UHGV virus genome: UHGV-1717814
Strand: one strand, 5' to 3'
Length of the DNA stretch: 10,525 nucleotides
Source of the DNA: a virus
Shown: positions 2,264 through 9,447 of the stretch, piece after piece
Position numbering within the stretch: position 1 is the stretch's first letter
Layout of the letters: each line of letters opens with the position of its first letter
The notes under the pieces: model-generated
What the model was told of the DNA's origin: nothing
Databases searched by the model: none
The model's input: the letters and a program-made list of their open reading frames with translations, nothing else
Position numbers and translations under genes: made by a program

Positions 2264-2856
2264 TGATTACCATCCTGACGTTCTTTGAGTCGCTTCCTGG
2301 CTGCTGCTATGCGATCAGCAATTGTCACATTCACATTAACATCCAGACGTTCTTTGAACGCGTTGACATCAACATGCTTACCAATCAGTTCTAGGTTCTT
2401 CACCTTGTCAGGCCATTTAATTTTTTTGAGGATTGTCTCTATCGAATCCTCGTTCATGTTCATGATGGTCGATGACAGATCAAAGCCACTAAGCGTAGTG
2501 CGCCAGATTTTCGGCCACTCACGGATTGGTTTAAGGCTCCCATCGTCGTTGAGGATATCGATCACGTCCATCTGGTCGATCTCCACCAAGCGCATGAGAA
2601 CGTAATCAGCACTGACGCGCATTCGTTTGTTGCGCTCCTCCATCAACTCGGCAATCCGTTTTTGAATGCGTTCATCGCGCATCATGACACTGGCTTTAAC
2701 TGCCGCTGTATTTGGGGAGAATCCTGCGTTAATCGCTGCCTGAGTCTGGTTTTCAGGCGTTTTGATGTATGACTGGCAATAAGCCTCCTGCATTGCTGTG
2801 AGCGGCTTAAATTGCGTTGATTTGCGTTTATAGGTTTTAGGTTCAGCAGGCATCAT
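2260..2856 (-). CDS. terS: Terminase small subunit, about 198 aa
   Basis: LTAMQEAYCQSYI...AAINAGFSPNTAAVKAS...RIQKRIAELMEER matches the pattern I recall for phage terminase small subunits. The ORF-track start at 2934 is a TTG extension overlapping a terminator hairpin; I place the start at the tandem ATGs 2854-2856 / 2851-2853, preceded by GGTGG. Confidence 0.8.
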   Translation of the reverse strand: MMPAEPKTYKRKSTQFKPLTAMQEAYCQSYIKTPENQTQAAINAGFSPNTAAVKASVMMRDERIQKRIAELMEERNKRMRVSADYVLMRLVEIDQMDVIDILNDDGSLKPIREWPKIWRTTLSGFDLSSTIMNMNEDSIETILKKIKWPDKVKNLELIGKHVDVNAFKERLDVNVNVTIADRIAAARKRLKERQDGNQ

Positions 2857-2865
2857 AACCACCGT

Positions 2866-2895
2866 GGTAATAGTTACCGTTGTGGTAATAGTACC
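2866..2895. promoter_or_regulatory. Palindrome cluster directly upstream of terS: perfect TTACC-gttgt-GGTAA (2874-2888) flanked by extra GGTAA / TACC half-sites
   Basis: Read directly; same motif as at the immunity region. Lies between the terminator (2899-2925) and the terS start codon. Confidence 0.45.
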
Positions 2896-2898
2896 ATG

Positions 2899-2925
2899 CA
2901 AAATAAAGCCGCCATAGTTGGCGGC
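2899..2925 (-). terminator. Rho-independent terminator upstream of terS (minus-strand sense)
   Basis: GCCGCCA (2908-2914) pairs with TGGCGGC (2919-2925), loop TAGT. On the minus strand the hairpin is followed by TTTATTT (complement of 2901-2907). Confidence 0.55.
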
Positions 2926-2965
2926 AGTATTCAAAACCCGTCAAATTCATCATGCATAATCTACT

Positions 2966-2979
2966 CGTGACATGTCACA
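2966..2979. repeat. 14-mer CGTGACATGTCACA, copy 2
   Basis: Identical to 701-714. Overlaps the stop codon of the 2975-3322 ORF and lies about 40 nt upstream (in transcription sense) of the terS-proximal terminator. Confidence 0.8.
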
Positions 2980-3322
2980 CTATTAATTTCGTTTCATGCC
3001 AGCCTTTAGTCACCCAGCATTGCGAGTCACCATTACACGGGCATGAATTAACTGGAACTCTCTCGCCGCACTTACCGCAACGTTTTCTGCTGATCGATTT
3101 TATACGCCCGCGCACACGTGCATCATCCTGGCGGATCAGCAGCGCGATGTACTCGGCCATTTCATAGGGATCGCGACCAGGGCGCCGGGCGGCGCAGTTC
3201 CGCGCCAGCATTTCCTGCTCCTGCTTATCCAGCACCAGTTCAATTTTGCGCTCACCGGCGGCGGACTGCCGAGCGCGCTGCGCGGCTTTGCGTTCTGCGG
3301 GGGATTTAGCCACGAATCGCAC
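2975..3322 (-). CDS. Hypothetical basic protein (about 112-115 aa) with C-terminal Cys cluster CGKCG...CPCNGDSQC; possible DNA-binding regulator
   Basis: Long ORF on the operon strand. Start is uncertain: GTG at 3320-3322 or GTG at 3311-3313, which has GGAG 8 nt upstream. Function is inferred only from composition and position. Confidence 0.4.
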   Translation of the reverse strand: MRFVAKSPAERKAAQRARQSAAGERKIELVLDKQEQEMLARNCAARRPGRDPYEMAEYIALLIRQDDARVRGRIKSISRKRCGKCGERVPVNSCPCNGDSQCWVTKGWHETKLIV

Positions 3323-5769: not shown

Positions 5770-6070
5770 TGGCAGCCTCCTTTGCCGGGATTTCTAACTT
5801 TTGAGTGGTTGTATCAAATTCAAACAACTTAACCACGTCATCAAACAGGACATAATCACCATCAGGATCTTCAGTCATATCTGCGCCACAATCCTGACCG
5901 CACGAGTCGCAACCATCCATATCAAGCTCGTATCGCTTCAGGTTTGCGATATTTGATAAATTCAGCGCCAGTACAGCCAGGTCATAAACCTCTTCGGCAG
6001 TGACATCGCTGTTCAGTCCCATTTCATGGCGATATATGATTTTTTCTACACGTTGTTTTGTGATCGTCAT
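5756..6070 (-). CDS. Hypothetical strongly acidic protein, 104 aa (24 D/E against 9 K/R by my count; Cys cluster DGCDSCGQDCGAD)
   Basis: ATG at 6068-6070 overlaps the upstream stop (ATGA). Composition counted by hand. Confidence 0.6.
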   Translation of the reverse strand: MTITKQRVEKIIYRHEMGLNSDVTAEEVYDLAVLALNLSNIANLKRYELDMDGCDSCGQDCGADMTEDPDGDYVLFDDVVKLFEFDTTTQKLEIPAKEAASEQD

Positions 6071-6630
6071 TTTTGCTCACCTTCCTGTTCTTCCAGAAAA
6101 ATACGCATAGCCTCAAGCATCTCTTCGGTGTCATACGGAGACAGCTTGTCACGCAGGATGTGTTCAATGCTGTTAATGAACTTGCGGATTGCTTTGCGTT
6201 CAATTTCAGCCAGGAAAGCGTCGGTGGCTGGGGTGTCTGATTGCAGAGACTTTGCGCGATAGTCATTCCACCCTCTTGCATACATGGGATTAACTTGCAC
6301 TCCATCTTTTACGCAATATGCCTGCCCTCCACGGTTGATAACCTTGATTTCGTCCATAGCGCCAGACTTCAGCCCCGCATTCTCCGCCGCCAGTGCCGAA
6401 AACTTCTCGTGTGCCAACTTAACAGCCGAATCAGCCTGCTTAATTGACTCAATCGCTTTCTGCTGGTCTTCGGCCAGCGCATTAGCACGCACCAGTTGCA
6501 CTTCCAGTTGCGTTGCCAAATCGCTGATCAGCTTTGCCACACTGCGCATATCAACGGCACCACATTCTGCTTTCAGTTCCGAAGCCATCTCATGCCCGGC
6601 GGCAACTAACCCTTTGATATTACTTTCCAT
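6067..6630 (-). CDS. Hypothetical protein with alanine-rich, probably coiled-coil N-terminal half, 187 aa
   Basis: ATG at 6628-6630 with GAGGGTAAAG upstream; no family recognised. Confidence 0.6.
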   Translation of the reverse strand: MESNIKGLVAAGHEMASELKAECGAVDMRSVAKLISDLATQLEVQLVRANALAEDQQKAIESIKQADSAVKLAHEKFSALAAENAGLKSGAMDEIKVINRGGQAYCVKDGVQVNPMYARGWNDYRAKSLQSDTPATDAFLAEIERKAIRKFINSIEHILRDKLSPYDTEEMLEAMRIFLEEQEGEQK

Positions 6631-6691
6631 CTTTACCCTCGCTTATCCACATAACTTATTGATTACATTGATAACTAAAAAGATCGTCGAT

Positions 6692-7036
6692 TCAGAAATC
6701 TTCGATGTTCCAGCCACCACCTGCTTTCTTTGGTTTAACCGTTACCCCGATGATTCGGAACGGATACTGATCTGCGGCGACTTTGGTTTTCACCCTGGCG
6801 TCGTCGGTCCAGAAACCTTTCACTTCGTGCAGTTCCATCTCGCCGGTGGCGAGCATCACAGCGAAATCTGGCGTATAGAACGTGTTATTAGCTAACCGCA
6901 GCTTGATACCCTCGAATCGATACCAGGCGATTTCCCCTGCACGTTTACGCTGCTCAAGGTGCTGGCAATACGCAGATTCTGTTTTGTTCATCTGGCCTGT
7001 TTTGAGTCGACCAAGAGCCTGCATCTGTTTTCTCAT
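6692..7036 (-). CDS. Small PD-(D/E)xK-like nuclease-fold protein, 114 aa (DUF1064-like)
   Basis: Segment YTPDFAVMLATGEMELHEVKG contains a PD...(E)xK arrangement. ATG at 7034-7036 with GAGGT 5 nt upstream. Family assignment from memory. Confidence 0.6.
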   Translation of the reverse strand: MRKQMQALGRLKTGQMNKTESAYCQHLEQRKRAGEIAWYRFEGIKLRLANNTFYTPDFAVMLATGEMELHEVKGFWTDDARVKTKVAADQYPFRIIGVTVKPKKAGGGWNIEDF

Positions 7037-7039
7037 GAT

Positions 7040-7116
7040 TTACCTCTGAGGTAATTAAAAACCACATAAGACACGAAATCAATAGGGTTTAGAATATTTT
7101 ATTACCTGATGGGTAA
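7040..7116 (-). promoter_or_regulatory. Operator-flanked promoter driving the accessory operon (minus strand)
   Basis: Perfect TTACC-N5-GGTAA at 7040-7054 and 7102-7116. Between them, on the minus strand: -35 TTGATT (7077-7082), 17-nt spacer, -10 TTTAAT (7054-7059). Same geometry as the PL-like region, including a 19-nt gap between the upstream operator and the -35. Confidence 0.5.
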
Positions 7117-7153
7117 TTATTTGAGCGTAAAAAAATGCGCTATCGCGCTGGTA

Positions 7154-7939
7154 TTACTTGATAAATCCTGCCGCCTTTCCCCGCCTGTATTCCTCCATCA
7201 GCCACTGCGCCGGTGTTATTCCCCCAAGGGTGGCGGCGTTAGGCATGCACCCGAAACTTCGCCCAGGTGGATGGTAAACGTCTCTCCCTGTGTCCGGAGG
7301 TGTACTCATGGGCTCTGGCTTTGCCTGTATGCTGATCACCGGATCGGGTATCTGCTGTCCGGAAGCCACCTTTTTCGCCCAATCATCGAGCAGCCTGCGC
7401 GCGTGTTTCTCAACCTCAATCTCGCTAAGCTGGCGCTGATACATTGCACGGCGGGTATCACATACGACCCAGTACATAACCGGATGTCGCCACGGGAATC
7501 TTTCGGGACCACCAGGATATAAACTTTTTTCCTTGCTGTACCGGTGAAACTCCGCCATCACATCGTCAATGGTGACGCCAAGAACCATCTTGCTGTCTTT
7601 ACACCACTTGATGAATTGCCCTGGCGACGGCCAGAACGGAGACTCACTGGCGCGGGCGTGGCGCATACCAGCAGAAACCTGTTCACGGGTTCGGATCCCC
7701 CCTTCGGCAAACGCAGCAATCCACTGCTGTTTTGCAGCAACTTCCTGCTCTGGCGTCTTCAGGTTGGTTACCACTGCCGCCGGAAACAGTTGTTTCAGCT
7801 GCTTGAAAAGGGCATCAACAAGCCTCTCTGCTGACATGTTCACTACGTTGTCATTGTTGGTGTACTGATGCTCATAACCTGACATGCGAGAAAGGGCTTC
7901 TCCGTCACGGTTTTGTATCGCGGTAAAAACGTTGTTCAC
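7154..7939 (-). CDS. Replication protein P-like (DnaB helicase loader), about 261 aa
   Basis: Segment LFKQLKQLFPAA...QQWIAAFAEGGIRTREQVSAGMRHARASESPFWPSPGQFIKWCKD aligns by eye with lambda P as I recall it (...RRQWVLAFRENGITTMEQVNAGMRVARRQNRPFLPSPGQFVAWCRE). ORF track begins at the GTG at 7954; I prefer the GTG at 7937-7939, which overlaps the O-like stop (GTGA) with GGAGGA 5 nt upstream. Confidence 0.85.
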   Translation of the reverse strand: MNNVFTAIQNRDGEALSRMSGYEHQYTNNDNVVNMSAERLVDALFKQLKQLFPAAVVTNLKTPEQEVAAKQQWIAAFAEGGIRTREQVSAGMRHARASESPFWPSPGQFIKWCKDSKMVLGVTIDDVMAEFHRYSKEKSLYPGGPERFPWRHPVMYWVVCDTRRAMYQRQLSEIEVEKHARRLLDDWAKKVASGQQIPDPVISIQAKPEPMSTPPDTGRDVYHPPGRSFGCMPNAATLGGITPAQWLMEEYRRGKAAGFIK

Positions 7940-8751
7940 AAGAAATCCTCCCACGCTTCAGGGCTGTTCCAGTGCGGAACGTTGTTATCAGGTAATGTTG
8001 ATTGCTTCTGTCTGCTAATCTGCAGCCGCCTTGCCAGCTTCTGCTCCCACTGTGCCTGATGGTATGCCTTACCCTCAGCCATCCAGTAAATTCTGAACTC
8101 TGCAAGTTCCTGTGCCGTTGGCAGACTGTCCAGGTAGATCCCCTGCAATGAGCTTTTCCGAAGAAAGTCATCTGATGGCTGCCATTGTTCATGCATGACA
8201 AATTTGCCTAATTGCCCTGGCCCACCAGGAGGAACAAAGTTATTCATCACGGCGTTGTTTGCGCCTGGGTCATGATGCACAGAATCCCCGTTTTTTGTCC
8301 TGCTCTCCCTCTCTTGGTTAAATGACTGGTTATATGACTGGTTCTGGATCCCGTTTTTGGGATCATTCAACATCCCGTTTTTGGGATCATTCAACATCCC
8401 GTTTTTGGGTATATTCCCGTTTTCGGTAACATTACCGTTTTCGGGTTCATTGCCCCCCTCTCGGTTGCCTTTAATGTTCCCGTTTTTGGTTATATTAAGA
8501 GAGAAAACCCGCACTCTTTTTGTCGCTCCCTTTCTCTCCCCGGTATCTGAAATAAGCCCCATTTTCATGAGCGATATAAGTCCGGCCTGCACGGTTTTTT
8601 TATTCAGGCAAGTGTCTTTAACGAGGCGTTCTATGCTGGGGTAGCAGAGGTTATATTCATCGGCTCTGTCAGCCATCGAGAGCAGTATGAGCTTTAATGA
8701 CGAGCTACCTGGATCTGTCTCCCAGGCCCAATCTGTTGCATGTCTGCTCAT
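7936..8751 (-). CDS. Replication initiator, O-like, 271 aa, with an internal low-complexity N/G/K-rich region encoded by the origin iterons
   Basis: Sits immediately upstream of, and coupled to, the P-like gene. Contains the iteron array at 8284-8497. ATG at 8749-8751 with GGAG 9 nt upstream. Confidence 0.75.
   Translation of the reverse strand: MSRHATDWAWETDPGSSSLKLILLSMADRADEYNLCYPSIERLVKDTCLNKKTVQAGLISLMKMGLISDTGERKGATKRVRVFSLNITKNGNIKGNREGGNEPENGNVTENGNIPKNGMLNDPKNGMLNDPKNGIQNQSYNQSFNQERESRTKNGDSVHHDPGANNAVMNNFVPPGGPGQLGKFVMHEQWQPSDDFLRKSSLQGIYLDSLPTAQELAEFRIYWMAEGKAYHQAQWEQKLARRLQISRQKQSTLPDNNVPHWNSPEAWEDFL
8284..8497. repeat. Iteron array, putative replication origin inside the O-like gene
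   Basis: Two perfect 24-bp direct repeats ATCCCGTTTTTGGGATCATTCAAC (8348-8371, 8372-8395) plus at least four degenerate copies sharing CCCGTTTT(T)GG (around 8284, 8396, 8417, 8435, 8478). Confidence 0.7.
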
Positions 8752-8766
8752 GATTAATCTCCGCTA

Positions 8767-8967
8767 TCAGCTTGAATGTTGTGGGGAGGAATTAATCATG
8801 ATCTGCTTAATCTCTGCCCTGATACGACGGTTTGATTCCATGGTGCACTCAACACAGTGTCCGTTGTAAACCCAGCGTTCACTGTCATGTCCGTGCTTAC
8901 ATGTTTTTCCGGTGTAGTAGCGTTTAAGTCCGCGCTTTGCGGCATCAATACGTGTAATGATTTCCAT
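8767..8967 (-). CDS. Small zinc-ribbon-like protein, 66 aa, in the position lambda uses for cII
   Basis: Internal ATG at 8965-8967 (MEIITRIDAAKRGLKRYYTGKTCKHGHDSERWVYNGHCVECT...); C-x-H-G-H...C-x2-C spacing. The longer track ORF from 9036 has a hydrophobic, unlikely extension. The ribosome-binding site is weak. Confidence 0.45.
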   Translation of the reverse strand: MEIITRIDAAKRGLKRYYTGKTCKHGHDSERWVYNGHCVECTMESNRRIRAEIKQIMINSSPQHSS

Positions 8968-9047
8968 GGTAAGCCCTGTTATTAGTATTGGGATTACGGT
9001 TATTTTGTGCTGACACAAAAAAAAGATCAACCACATTTGGTTTTTTA

Positions 9048-9062
9048 TTACCTTTGAGGTAC
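9048..9062. promoter_or_regulatory. Near-perfect operator-like palindrome TTACC-tttga-GGTAC
   Basis: One mismatch in the right half-site; lies just downstream of the cro-proximal terminator. Confidence 0.3.
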
Positions 9063-9073
9063 GAATAGATATG

Positions 9074-9095
9074 AAAAGACCGCCGGATGGCGGTC
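9074..9095 (-). terminator. tR1-like rho-independent terminator just after the Cro-like gene
   Basis: GACCGCC (9078-9084), loop ggat, GGCGGTC (9089-9095); on the minus strand it is followed by TTTT (complement of 9074-9077). Confidence 0.5.
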
Positions 9096-9117
9096 TACAG
9101 AGGGTTGTGGCTGGATA

Positions 9118-9348
9118 TCATGAGTAGAAGAAGTATGCCAGTTCTGCTTTTGAGCACAGCCATTGTCTTGATTTACAGGCTTTAAAAAGCCCATCCATCA
9201 ATACCTTACCTGGCATTTTGCGCTTACCTGTTAAGTGAGTCTGGATATAGTGACTCGTCGTTCCGGCTTCCTGTGCGAAGGCTTCACGCTCATCCGGAGT
9301 AAGTGCAAGCCAGTGCTTTTTGAAATCGAAATGTCCGTTATCGCTCAT
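9118..9348 (-). CDS. Cro-like HTH regulator, 76 aa (YdaS-like)
   Basis: Divergent from the repressor gene across an operator-rich gap. Segment FAQEAGTTSHYIQTHLTGKRKMP resembles the YdaS/Cro-type HTH as I recall it. Confidence 0.65.
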   Translation of the reverse strand: MSDNGHFDFKKHWLALTPDEREAFAQEAGTTSHYIQTHLTGKRKMPGKVLMDGLFKACKSRQWLCSKAELAYFFYS

Positions 9349-9384
9349 AGCTATTGCCTGATATTTATTTCAGATAATAAATAT

Positions 9385-9447
9385 TCACCTATAAGGTAAC
9401 AAAAATCAAGGATAGTTACCCATGAGGTGCATTTACCTGTTGGGTAA
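9385..9447. promoter_or_regulatory. Tripartite OR-like operator region with divergent promoters
   Basis: TCACC-tataa-GGTAA (9385-9399), TTACC-catga-GGTGC (9416-9430), perfect TTACC-tgttg-GGTAA (9433-9447). Candidate minus-strand promoter for the Cro-like gene: TTGATT, 17 nt, GAATAT, overlapping the first two sites. Confidence 0.6.

Follow-up and report, generated by a model that had tools for sequence, protein, structure and literature searches.

An iteron array in the linker-coding part of the initiator gene is the probable replication origin of a phiV10-like temperate phage

The replication origin of phage lambda (ori) lies in the middle of gene O and consists of O-binding iterons and an AT-rich tract; binding of O forms the O-some, and the iterons nearest the AT-rich tract suffice in vitro (PMC7466680). 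A second described system is chromosomal. In the DopC/DopE proteins of Cellvibrionales and Oceanospirillales, an HTH_36 N-terminus is combined with a DnaT C-terminal motif and a lambda-P-like protein follows; DopC is described as domesticated from a phage, and no iteron-like repeats were found in dopC (Brezellec et al. 2017, PMC5509034). Here we analyze a stretch of 10,525 bp from the virus genome UHGV-1717814 (the window), which matches temperate podophages of Escherichia coli in the phiV10 group (genus Uetakevirus), and we describe a repeat array at positions 8348-8492 within the gene of its replication initiator. Comparison with related phages makes it likely that a phiV10-like phage uses this array as the iterons of its replication origin, where the initiator would bind, and that the origin lies inside the linker-coding part of the initiator's own gene, on the plan of lambda. 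An iteron origin inside an initiator gene is expected, textbook lambda biology. What this locus adds is a reading-frame independence which proves that the DNA and not a peptide is conserved, a natural hybrid with lambda in phage GF-2, a motif family usable for origin prediction, and a conserved element after the iterons.

The sequence CCGTTTTYGG occurs six times in the window, always on the plus strand and always between 8351 and 8489 (starts at 8351, 8375, 8399, 8417, 8435 and 8480, with start-to-start spacings of 24, 24, 18, 18 and 45 bp), against 0.04 copies expected by chance; none of 200 dinucleotide shuffles of the window contained more than one copy. A looser form of the motif, CCRAWWWYGG, has nine sites in the whole 39.3-kb genome of phiv142-3, and six of them fall within 139 bp, which is the array. 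Each unit is a 16-bp dyad, in its best form ATCCC-GTTTTT-GGGAT (arms ATCCC/GGGAT). The three best dyads, spaced 24 bp, adjoin a second element that follows the last iteron in the direction of the gene (the post-iteron element), and the weaker ones lie farther off (Table 1). The array occupies nucleotides (nt) 260-404 of the 816 nt of the minus-strand open reading frame (ORF) 7936-8751, between the parts coding for the HTH_36 domain (amino acids [aa] 18-67) and the DnaT domain (aa 180-265). The original prediction had named two perfect 24-bp direct repeats, which are confirmed at 8348-8371 and 8372-8395 and belong to a perfect tandem of 62 bp (8348-8409, 2.6 copies at 100%; Tandem Repeats Finder, TRF), and had stated that the repeats code for the N/G/K-rich middle of the protein, as the translation confirms. 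It had also claimed several degenerate copies in 8284-8497; six motif cores are indeed present at 8351-8489, but the copy at 8284-8299 is only a degenerate half-site beyond the second element. The internal palindrome of each unit, the 12-bp tandem alongside the array, and the location in a minus-strand gene without sequence homology to lambda O are new to the present analysis.

Two terminator-like hairpins with a T-run (8358-8377 and 8382-8401, plus strand) are antisense to the initiator gene and are made by the facing arms of adjacent iterons (GGGAT...ATCCC, then GTTTTT). Probably they arise as a side effect of the dyads, though they could stop antisense transcription. A promoter and terminator scan of the window gave counts at chance level, the hairpins flagged inside the array being the iteron arms. 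The iteron cores ACCGAAAACGG (8414-8447) resemble the papillomavirus E2 binding site ACCGN4CGGT, a likeness that we take to be coincidence; all literature matches for the 10-mer CCGAAAACGG were the papillomavirus E2 site or primers.

Table 1. Positions of the putative origin parts and of the surrounding genes and signals in the window
Feature	Position	Strand	Sequence or basis	Remark
Iteron 1	8477-8492		TTCCCGTTTTTGGTTA	First in gene direction
Decayed spacer or remnant copy	about 8450-8476		TTGCCCCCCTCTCGGTTGCC...	Fills the 45-bp gap
Iteron 2	8432-8447		TTACCGTTTTCGGGTT	Weaker arms
Iteron 3	8414-8429		TTCCCGTTTTCGGTAA	Weaker arms, 18-bp spacing
Iteron 4	8396-8411		ATCCCGTTTTTGGGTA	
Iteron 5	8372-8387		ATCCCGTTTTTGGGAT	Perfect 5-bp arms
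Iteron 6	8348-8363		ATCCCGTTTTTGGGAT	Perfect 5-bp arms; last in gene direction, adjoins post-iteron element
Post-iteron element, proposed unwinding element	8310-8347		TRF, stability, homologues	Coding strand reads CAGAACCAGTCATATAACCAGTCATTTAACCAAGAG
Outlying degenerate copy or half-site	8284-8299		ATCCCCGTTTTTTGTC	Beyond post-iteron element
Replication initiator gene, 271 aa	7936-8751	-	Pfam, PHROG and PDB matches	
Lambda-P-family helicase loader gene, 266 aa	7154-7954	-	Pfam Phage_lambda_P	
Small ORF, 66 aa	8767-8967	-	phrog_1081	Directly upstream of initiator gene
Terminator	9096-9077	-		Also annotated in phiV10
Cro-like ORF	9118-9348	-		

To relatives of this locus we had access through a tblastn search with the N-terminal domain (N-domain) of the initiator (aa 1-86), which returned 124 phage records and replaced a word-indexed protein search whose matches were all truncated or fragmentary proteins no longer than 163 aa. 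Nine initiator loci (3.2 kb) were fetched, and the seven with 42-58% identity in the N-domain all carry exact CCRAWWWYGG cores: Edwardsiella GF-2 (58% identity, four cores), Vibrio Her (57.6%, six), Acinetobacter AB1 (50.6%, three), E. coli PPompW (49%, three), Acinetobacter Ab105-2phi (47.5%, six), Burkholderia Bcep176 (44%, three) and EBPR podovirus 1 from a wastewater metagenome (42%, six). Typical units are GATCCCAAAATTGGGAT in GF-2, CCCGAAAACGGTAC in Her, ACCCAAATTTGGGT in AB1 and GTACCGAAATTGGTAC in Ab105-2phi. The cores of these seven lie at gene nt 273-464, and no core was found outside the gene position in the fetched 3.2-kb loci; together with the present phage, eight initiators (N-domain identity 42-100%) bear three to six exact cores each at gene nt 263-464. 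Their C-terminal domains are of different kinds, DnaT-like in this phage and PPompW, of the lambda-O type in GF-2, and not detected by Pfam in the other five, and in the two Acinetobacter phages a DnaB-like helicase gene comes next. Because the motif follows the N-domain while the C-terminal domains differ, the array belongs with the winged helix-turn-helix (HTH) domain. The CCRAWWWYGG dyads are a motif class tied to one HTH_36 initiator branch in gamma- and beta-proteobacterial phages, which makes origin prediction possible.

The strongest available argument that the array would be an origin equivalent to ori-lambda comes from GF-2. Its O protein joins an N-domain of the present type (58%) and the array to the C-terminal domain of lambda O (residues 137-280 share 62% identity with lambda O residues 156-299, E = 2e-67), and its P protein shares 55% identity with lambda P. 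DNA homology between GF-2 and lambda resumes at TC(A/C)GAGAATTCTG(G/A)CGAATCC, directly after the A+T-rich tract of lambda. The N-domain, iterons and post-iteron element therefore replace the N-domain, iterons and AT-rich tract of lambda base for base, and GF-2 offers a natural example of an N-domain and an origin swapped as one unit between replication systems. The likeness to lambda drawn in the original prediction, with ori inside gene O, is supported by this hybrid, since it puts the array exactly at the ori-lambda position.

The putative origin and ori-lambda also resemble each other in their parts. Both are built from dyad repeats whose arms are TCCC/GGGA and whose centre is an A-tract (ATCCCTCAAAACGAGGGAT in lambda; on the coding strand here, ATCCCAAAAACGGGAT), with spacings of 18-24 bp here (45 bp once) and of 20, 24 and 23 bp among the four lambda iterons (O gene nt 349-433). 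In both, the array is located in the linker-coding middle of the gene, a less stable element, here a putative one, comes next in the direction of transcription and the best sites stand beside that element; a P-family loader gene comes after the initiator gene (the listed ORFs overlap here), and N-domain and ori form an exchangeable module, as seen in GF-2. They differ in that the initiator here is no detectable homologue of lambda O, the dyad measures 16 bp rather than 19 bp, having lost about 3 bp of centre by comparison, the sites number six instead of four, the adjacent element is about 60% A+T with a short tandem repeat in place of the A-rich tract of lambda, and the C-terminal domain is DnaT-like rather than of the lambda O type. 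Theta plasmid iteron origins (RepA, pi, TrfA) are alike as well in having repeated initiator-binding sites by an unwinding element and a winged-helix initiator. Plasmid iterons, however, are direct repeats without symmetry, to which Rep monomers with two winged-helix domains bind, and they lie outside the rep gene, whereas the units here are dyads inside coding sequence, which suggests binding by dimers.

The post-iteron element contains a 12-bp tandem (TGGTTAWATGAC, 2.4 copies at 8315-8343, TRF) directly beside the array, and one of its 30-mers (gene nt 413) is less stable than all others in the gene but one. Its position matches the A+T-rich unwinding region of lambda, the very tract that the post-iteron element replaces in GF-2, and by this analogy it is plausible that 8310-8347 serves as the unwinding element. 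In all eight homologues the last core is followed by GAYNCRGAAY, in which CAGAAC or CGGAAC (CAGAAT in GF-2) begins at +7. From there on, RAAC(C/A) is repeated at intervals of 9-13 nt, and only on the coding strand; in 8310-8347 of the window and in the 50 nt after the last iteron of the homologues it was seen 24 times, where the remainder of the genes would predict 2.9, a contrast whose probability is only indicative because the pattern was chosen post hoc. The periodic element is kept with the HTH_36 N-domain in eight of eight homologues, whatever the C-terminal domain or helicase system. We regard it as conceivable, if rather doubtful, that the origin has a second sequence-specific part in this periodic CAGAAC(+7)/RAAC(C/A) element, which would act as a strand-specific opening or single-stranded DNA (ssDNA) recognition element on whose strand the clustered C-terminal domains would form a filament in the DnaT-like variants such as this phage, a module of this kind being the direct viral source of DopC/DopE. 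The initiator on the last iteron could set the position of such an element, much as a DnaA box does for DnaA-trios. If this were true, the initiator would be a compact "localise, melt, recruit" protein.

The repeats might be genuine initiator-binding sites that serve for control (autoregulation, a transcription roadblock, titration or handcuffing) while initiation takes place elsewhere, for example in the A+T-rich stretch 8968-9117, and plasmid iterons do have control roles. Directly upstream of the replication genes, 8980-9060 has only 27-33% G+C, and phiv142-3 has one CCRAWWWYGG match in the corresponding intergenic region. In the window, however, that intergenic match has a mismatch (CCACATTTGG), and the AT-rich stretch holds a terminator and fits ordinary regulatory DNA; its sole promoter-like match is weak (9/12, plus strand). 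Moreover, the GF-2 hybrid sets the array exactly at the functional origin of lambda, and a conserved element stands at a fixed distance after the last iteron in eight of eight homologues. We therefore think it unlikely that the array has control functions only, and prefer to read it as the origin.

It is also evident from the homologues that the array is conserved as DNA. In Her, GF-2, PPompW, Bcep176 and EBPR podovirus 1, the cores lie in two or three different reading frames, at spacings that include 17, 22, 23, 25, 33 and 34 bp; the ORFs are uninterrupted on translation in Her, GF-2, Bcep176 and the EBPR phage, and that of PPompW is an annotated coding sequence. One DNA word thereby gives unrelated peptides in the homologues (TKNG, SQKRD, VPKTE, VPISD and SPENG, as well as VPKSG in the EBPR phage). 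Since the motif is kept in different frames, selection acts on the DNA and not on a peptide repeat. It is thus very improbable that the repeats arose as a side effect of a low-complexity peptide linker (PKNG/ENGN) that was expanded by slippage and has a role in the protein, such as flexibility or contact with a host protein, and no function as DNA. Such a linker would account for copies that stand in one frame in the window with all spacings multiples of three, for the hypervariable linker length among homologues, and for a copy number that varies in close relatives (four to seven cores and one to three 12-mers) as in slippage-prone tandems; a dyad unit, however, would be meaningless for a peptide, and the codons in the copies are those that the dyad requires, with Pro encoded by CCC in 4/4 cases (background 10%) and Gly by GGG in 5/6 (background 21%).

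The peptide encoded by the array reads ...ITKNGNIKGNREGGNEPENGNVTENGNIPKNGMLNDPKNGMLNDPKNGIQ... (ITKNGN..EPENGN-VTENGN-IPKNGM-LNDPKNGM-LNDPKNGI). Its odd N/G/K-rich composition, which the original prediction had ascribed to the repeats, is accounted for by the translation of the iterons in a linker that tolerates almost any sequence. Among 60 distinct haplotypes of close relatives from the viral-contig scan, all at least 96% identical, nucleotide diversity (pi) is 0.0049 in the iteron cores, 0.0248 at the non-core positions of the array and 0.0106 in the rest of the gene. The region of the decayed copy is the most polymorphic stretch of the gene in these relatives, with 20 of the 97 segregating sites at gene nt 289-336.

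Across phages, the repeat sequence co-varies with the DNA-binding domain of the initiator, being present with eight of eight related N-domains and absent with unrelated or distant ones. Phages Tyrion and TL-2011b have the same neighbours and keep the DnaT-like C-terminus and P, and there the N-domain is unrelated and the motif is absent. Where the initiator is 29% identical, in Stx phage 24B and Aeromonas phage 56, the corresponding part of the gene holds other repeats (GGGGTGGGGCAGGAGCTGCCC three times and a 38-mer twice, respectively). The notion that the repeats bind another protein, whether a host factor, the phage repressor or Cro-like protein, or the 66-aa upstream protein, has scarcely any credit left, as the motif tracks the initiator N-domain across hosts that range from Acinetobacter to Burkholderia and across loci with different neighbour genes, and is lost in Tyrion and TL-2011b, where only the N-domain is swapped and the neighbours are the same.

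Only the N-terminal half of the initiator gene is exchanged in Tyrion (locus nt 2345-3112) and TL-2011b (locus nt 2291-3115), both close relatives of the phage, and the exchanged halves bring their own, different repeats, for example ACTCCTTTTGTAACGCTG..GCGTTAC twice in TL-2011b. Judged from these sequences, the half-gene swap appears to be a modular exchange of origin specificity. A pac site or terminase recognition site was considered for the array and rejected, since it is the initiator N-domain, and not the packaging genes, that the array accompanies. An 8,461-bp circular E. coli plasmid, NZ_CP148379.1, carries cro-like and ydaT genes, a PPompW-type DnaT-like initiator gene and a P gene together with Qin/Rac-like cargo (rem, hokD); its annotation lists no further replication gene, in a record that is a single-cell assembly with an incomplete PLSDB gene table. 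The plasmid was not used as evidence, and it may be a natural lambda-dv-like replicon.

Taken together, these comparisons support the original prediction of an iteron-type origin inside the initiator gene: the motif is conserved as DNA across hosts and frames, it co-varies with the N-domain, it occupies the place of ori-lambda in the GF-2 hybrid, and a P-family loader gene comes next. The further claim that the repeats pin the origin position holds in so far as the comparative evidence points to the array, the position itself being deduced from it. Several points weigh against the array as origin. Binding and origin activity of the array and its relatives are predicted from sequence comparison; a literature search found no binding or replication data for the element or any relative, no paper that describes this origin or motif or contains the 12- or 14-mers, and none that links iterons with epsilon15 or with DnaT-like prophage genes. 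All six cores in the window share one reading frame, so the window alone cannot decide between DNA and peptide, and the codon-choice test within it is weak (p about 0.02, copies not independent); for these two reasons the DNA-level argument rests on the homologues. The contrast in pi among close relatives comes from few sites. The post-iteron element has about 60% A+T against 52% for the gene, a moderate excess compared with the marked AT tract of lambda, the G+C profile has no marked A+T-rich block beside the array, and it is at the opposite array edge (gene nt 254) that the gene has its least stable 30-mer. Finally, because the N-domain cannot be shown to be homologous to lambda O, a lambda-like mechanism is transferred by analogy only.

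By that analogy, and starting from the anatomy and the comparative pattern, initiation might proceed in five steps. Leftward early transcription would make the initiator and the P-like loader and would run through the origin. Initiator dimers would then bind the 16-bp dyads via their N-terminal winged-HTH domains to form an O-some-like complex, the adjacent, less stable element at 8310-8347 would open, and the clustered DnaT-like C-terminal domains would take up the single strand, dock the loader-DnaB complex, or both, with the P-like protein bringing the host DnaB. The C-terminal domain of DnaT forms helical filaments on ssDNA in the preprimosome, and parallels with DnaA have been noted by the authors (PMC13377028). 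The type of C-terminal domain also tracks the type of P, the lambda type of GF-2 going with a P that is 55% identical to lambda P and the DnaT-like type here with one that is 31% identical, and a contact between the C-terminal domain and P would fit this pattern.

The initiator matches the family phrog_1032 ("replication initiation protein") at 1.4e-108 and has three parts: an N-terminal winged-HTH domain (Pfam HTH_36, aa 18-67, 1.8e-10), a low-complexity linker (about aa 88-178) coded by the DNA of the putative origin, and a DnaT-like C-terminus (aa 180-265; Pfam DnaT PF17948 at aa 184-252, 1.1e-15). The "O-like" label of the original prediction is apt by analogy, but not as a statement of sequence homology. 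The initiator has no match to PF04492 (Phage_rep_O) at E <= 0.01, a family that lambda O itself matches at 5.7e-36, its N-domain being HTH_36; BLASTP gives E = 0.07 and hhalign a probability of 2%, and membership in the lambda O family was accordingly rejected. The C-terminal, P-interacting domain of lambda O is not present, the C-terminus being DnaT-like instead. A profile search of the PDB with the N-domain gave only weak, generic winged-HTH matches (MarR, ArsR, GntR; E >= 0.007), and a single-sequence AlphaFold2 model of the initiator was uninformative (mean predicted local distance difference test score 37.5).

Residues 180-265 of the initiator align with residues 85-170 of E. coli DnaT (PDB 9zbt, 6aep and 4ou6; E = 7e-21 to 4e-20), which form its three-helix, ssDNA-binding, filament-forming C-terminal domain. 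No match to the N-terminal oligomerisation domain of DnaT was reported, the PDB match to full-length DnaT beginning at DnaT residue 85; residues 1-179 of the phage protein are winged-HTH and linker, so there is no full-length collinearity. The phage protein thus differs from DnaT in having a winged-HTH domain and a linker that bears the putative origin instead of the DnaT N-terminal domain, and its gene stands in an initiator-loader operon and not in dnaT-dnaC. In GenBank and RefSeq the gene 7936-8751 is named "primosomal protein I", "DnaT" or "DnaT-like ssDNA-binding domain-containing protein". Because only the C-terminal domain matches DnaT, the names "primosomal protein I" and "DnaT" are misnomers and misleading. 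The closer parallel is DopC/DopE, whose two-gene architecture is identical to that of the phage when compared by the published description rather than by the DopC sequence. They differ in that the phage gene is phage-borne with a six-iteron array, whereas DopC is chromosomal and without iterons. On this comparison the phage module would be the iteron-bearing viral counterpart of DopC/DopE, which suggests a phage source for their architecture.

The surroundings of the initiator gene conform to the phiV10 group, the region 7100-9400 being 99.2% identical to phiv142-3 and 98.1% identical to phiV10, a phage used as an O157 reporter and for engineering. All replication genes are on the minus strand and are read leftward. 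The listed ORF of the loader overlaps the 3' end of the initiator gene by 19 nt, and its product matches Pfam Phage_lambda_P (PF06992) at 1.5e-56 and is 31% identical to lambda P (E = 1e-35). DnaA boxes number two in the window against 1.08 expected, which is not above chance, and the array and its vicinity contain none; one perfect match to the DnaA-box consensus, TTATCCACA, is found at 6643-6651, in the intergenic space that separates ORFs 6067-6630 and 6692-7036. Of 5,426 complete E. coli genomes, 421 contain the 214-bp array region, and the listed E. coli genome records label this stretch only as a DnaT-like protein gene. No origin is annotated in the feature tables of the four records phiV10, phiv142-3, Tyrion and TL-2011b, and for the temperate podophages of the phiV10 group the present analysis predicts an origin at about 8310-8492, a position precise enough to be tested. 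The small ORF directly upstream of the initiator gene encodes a Cys/His-rich motif, CKHGH...HCVEC, which suggests a zinc ribbon, and the ORF is kept in phiV10 and epsilon15 (p42 and p40) and in Tyrion.

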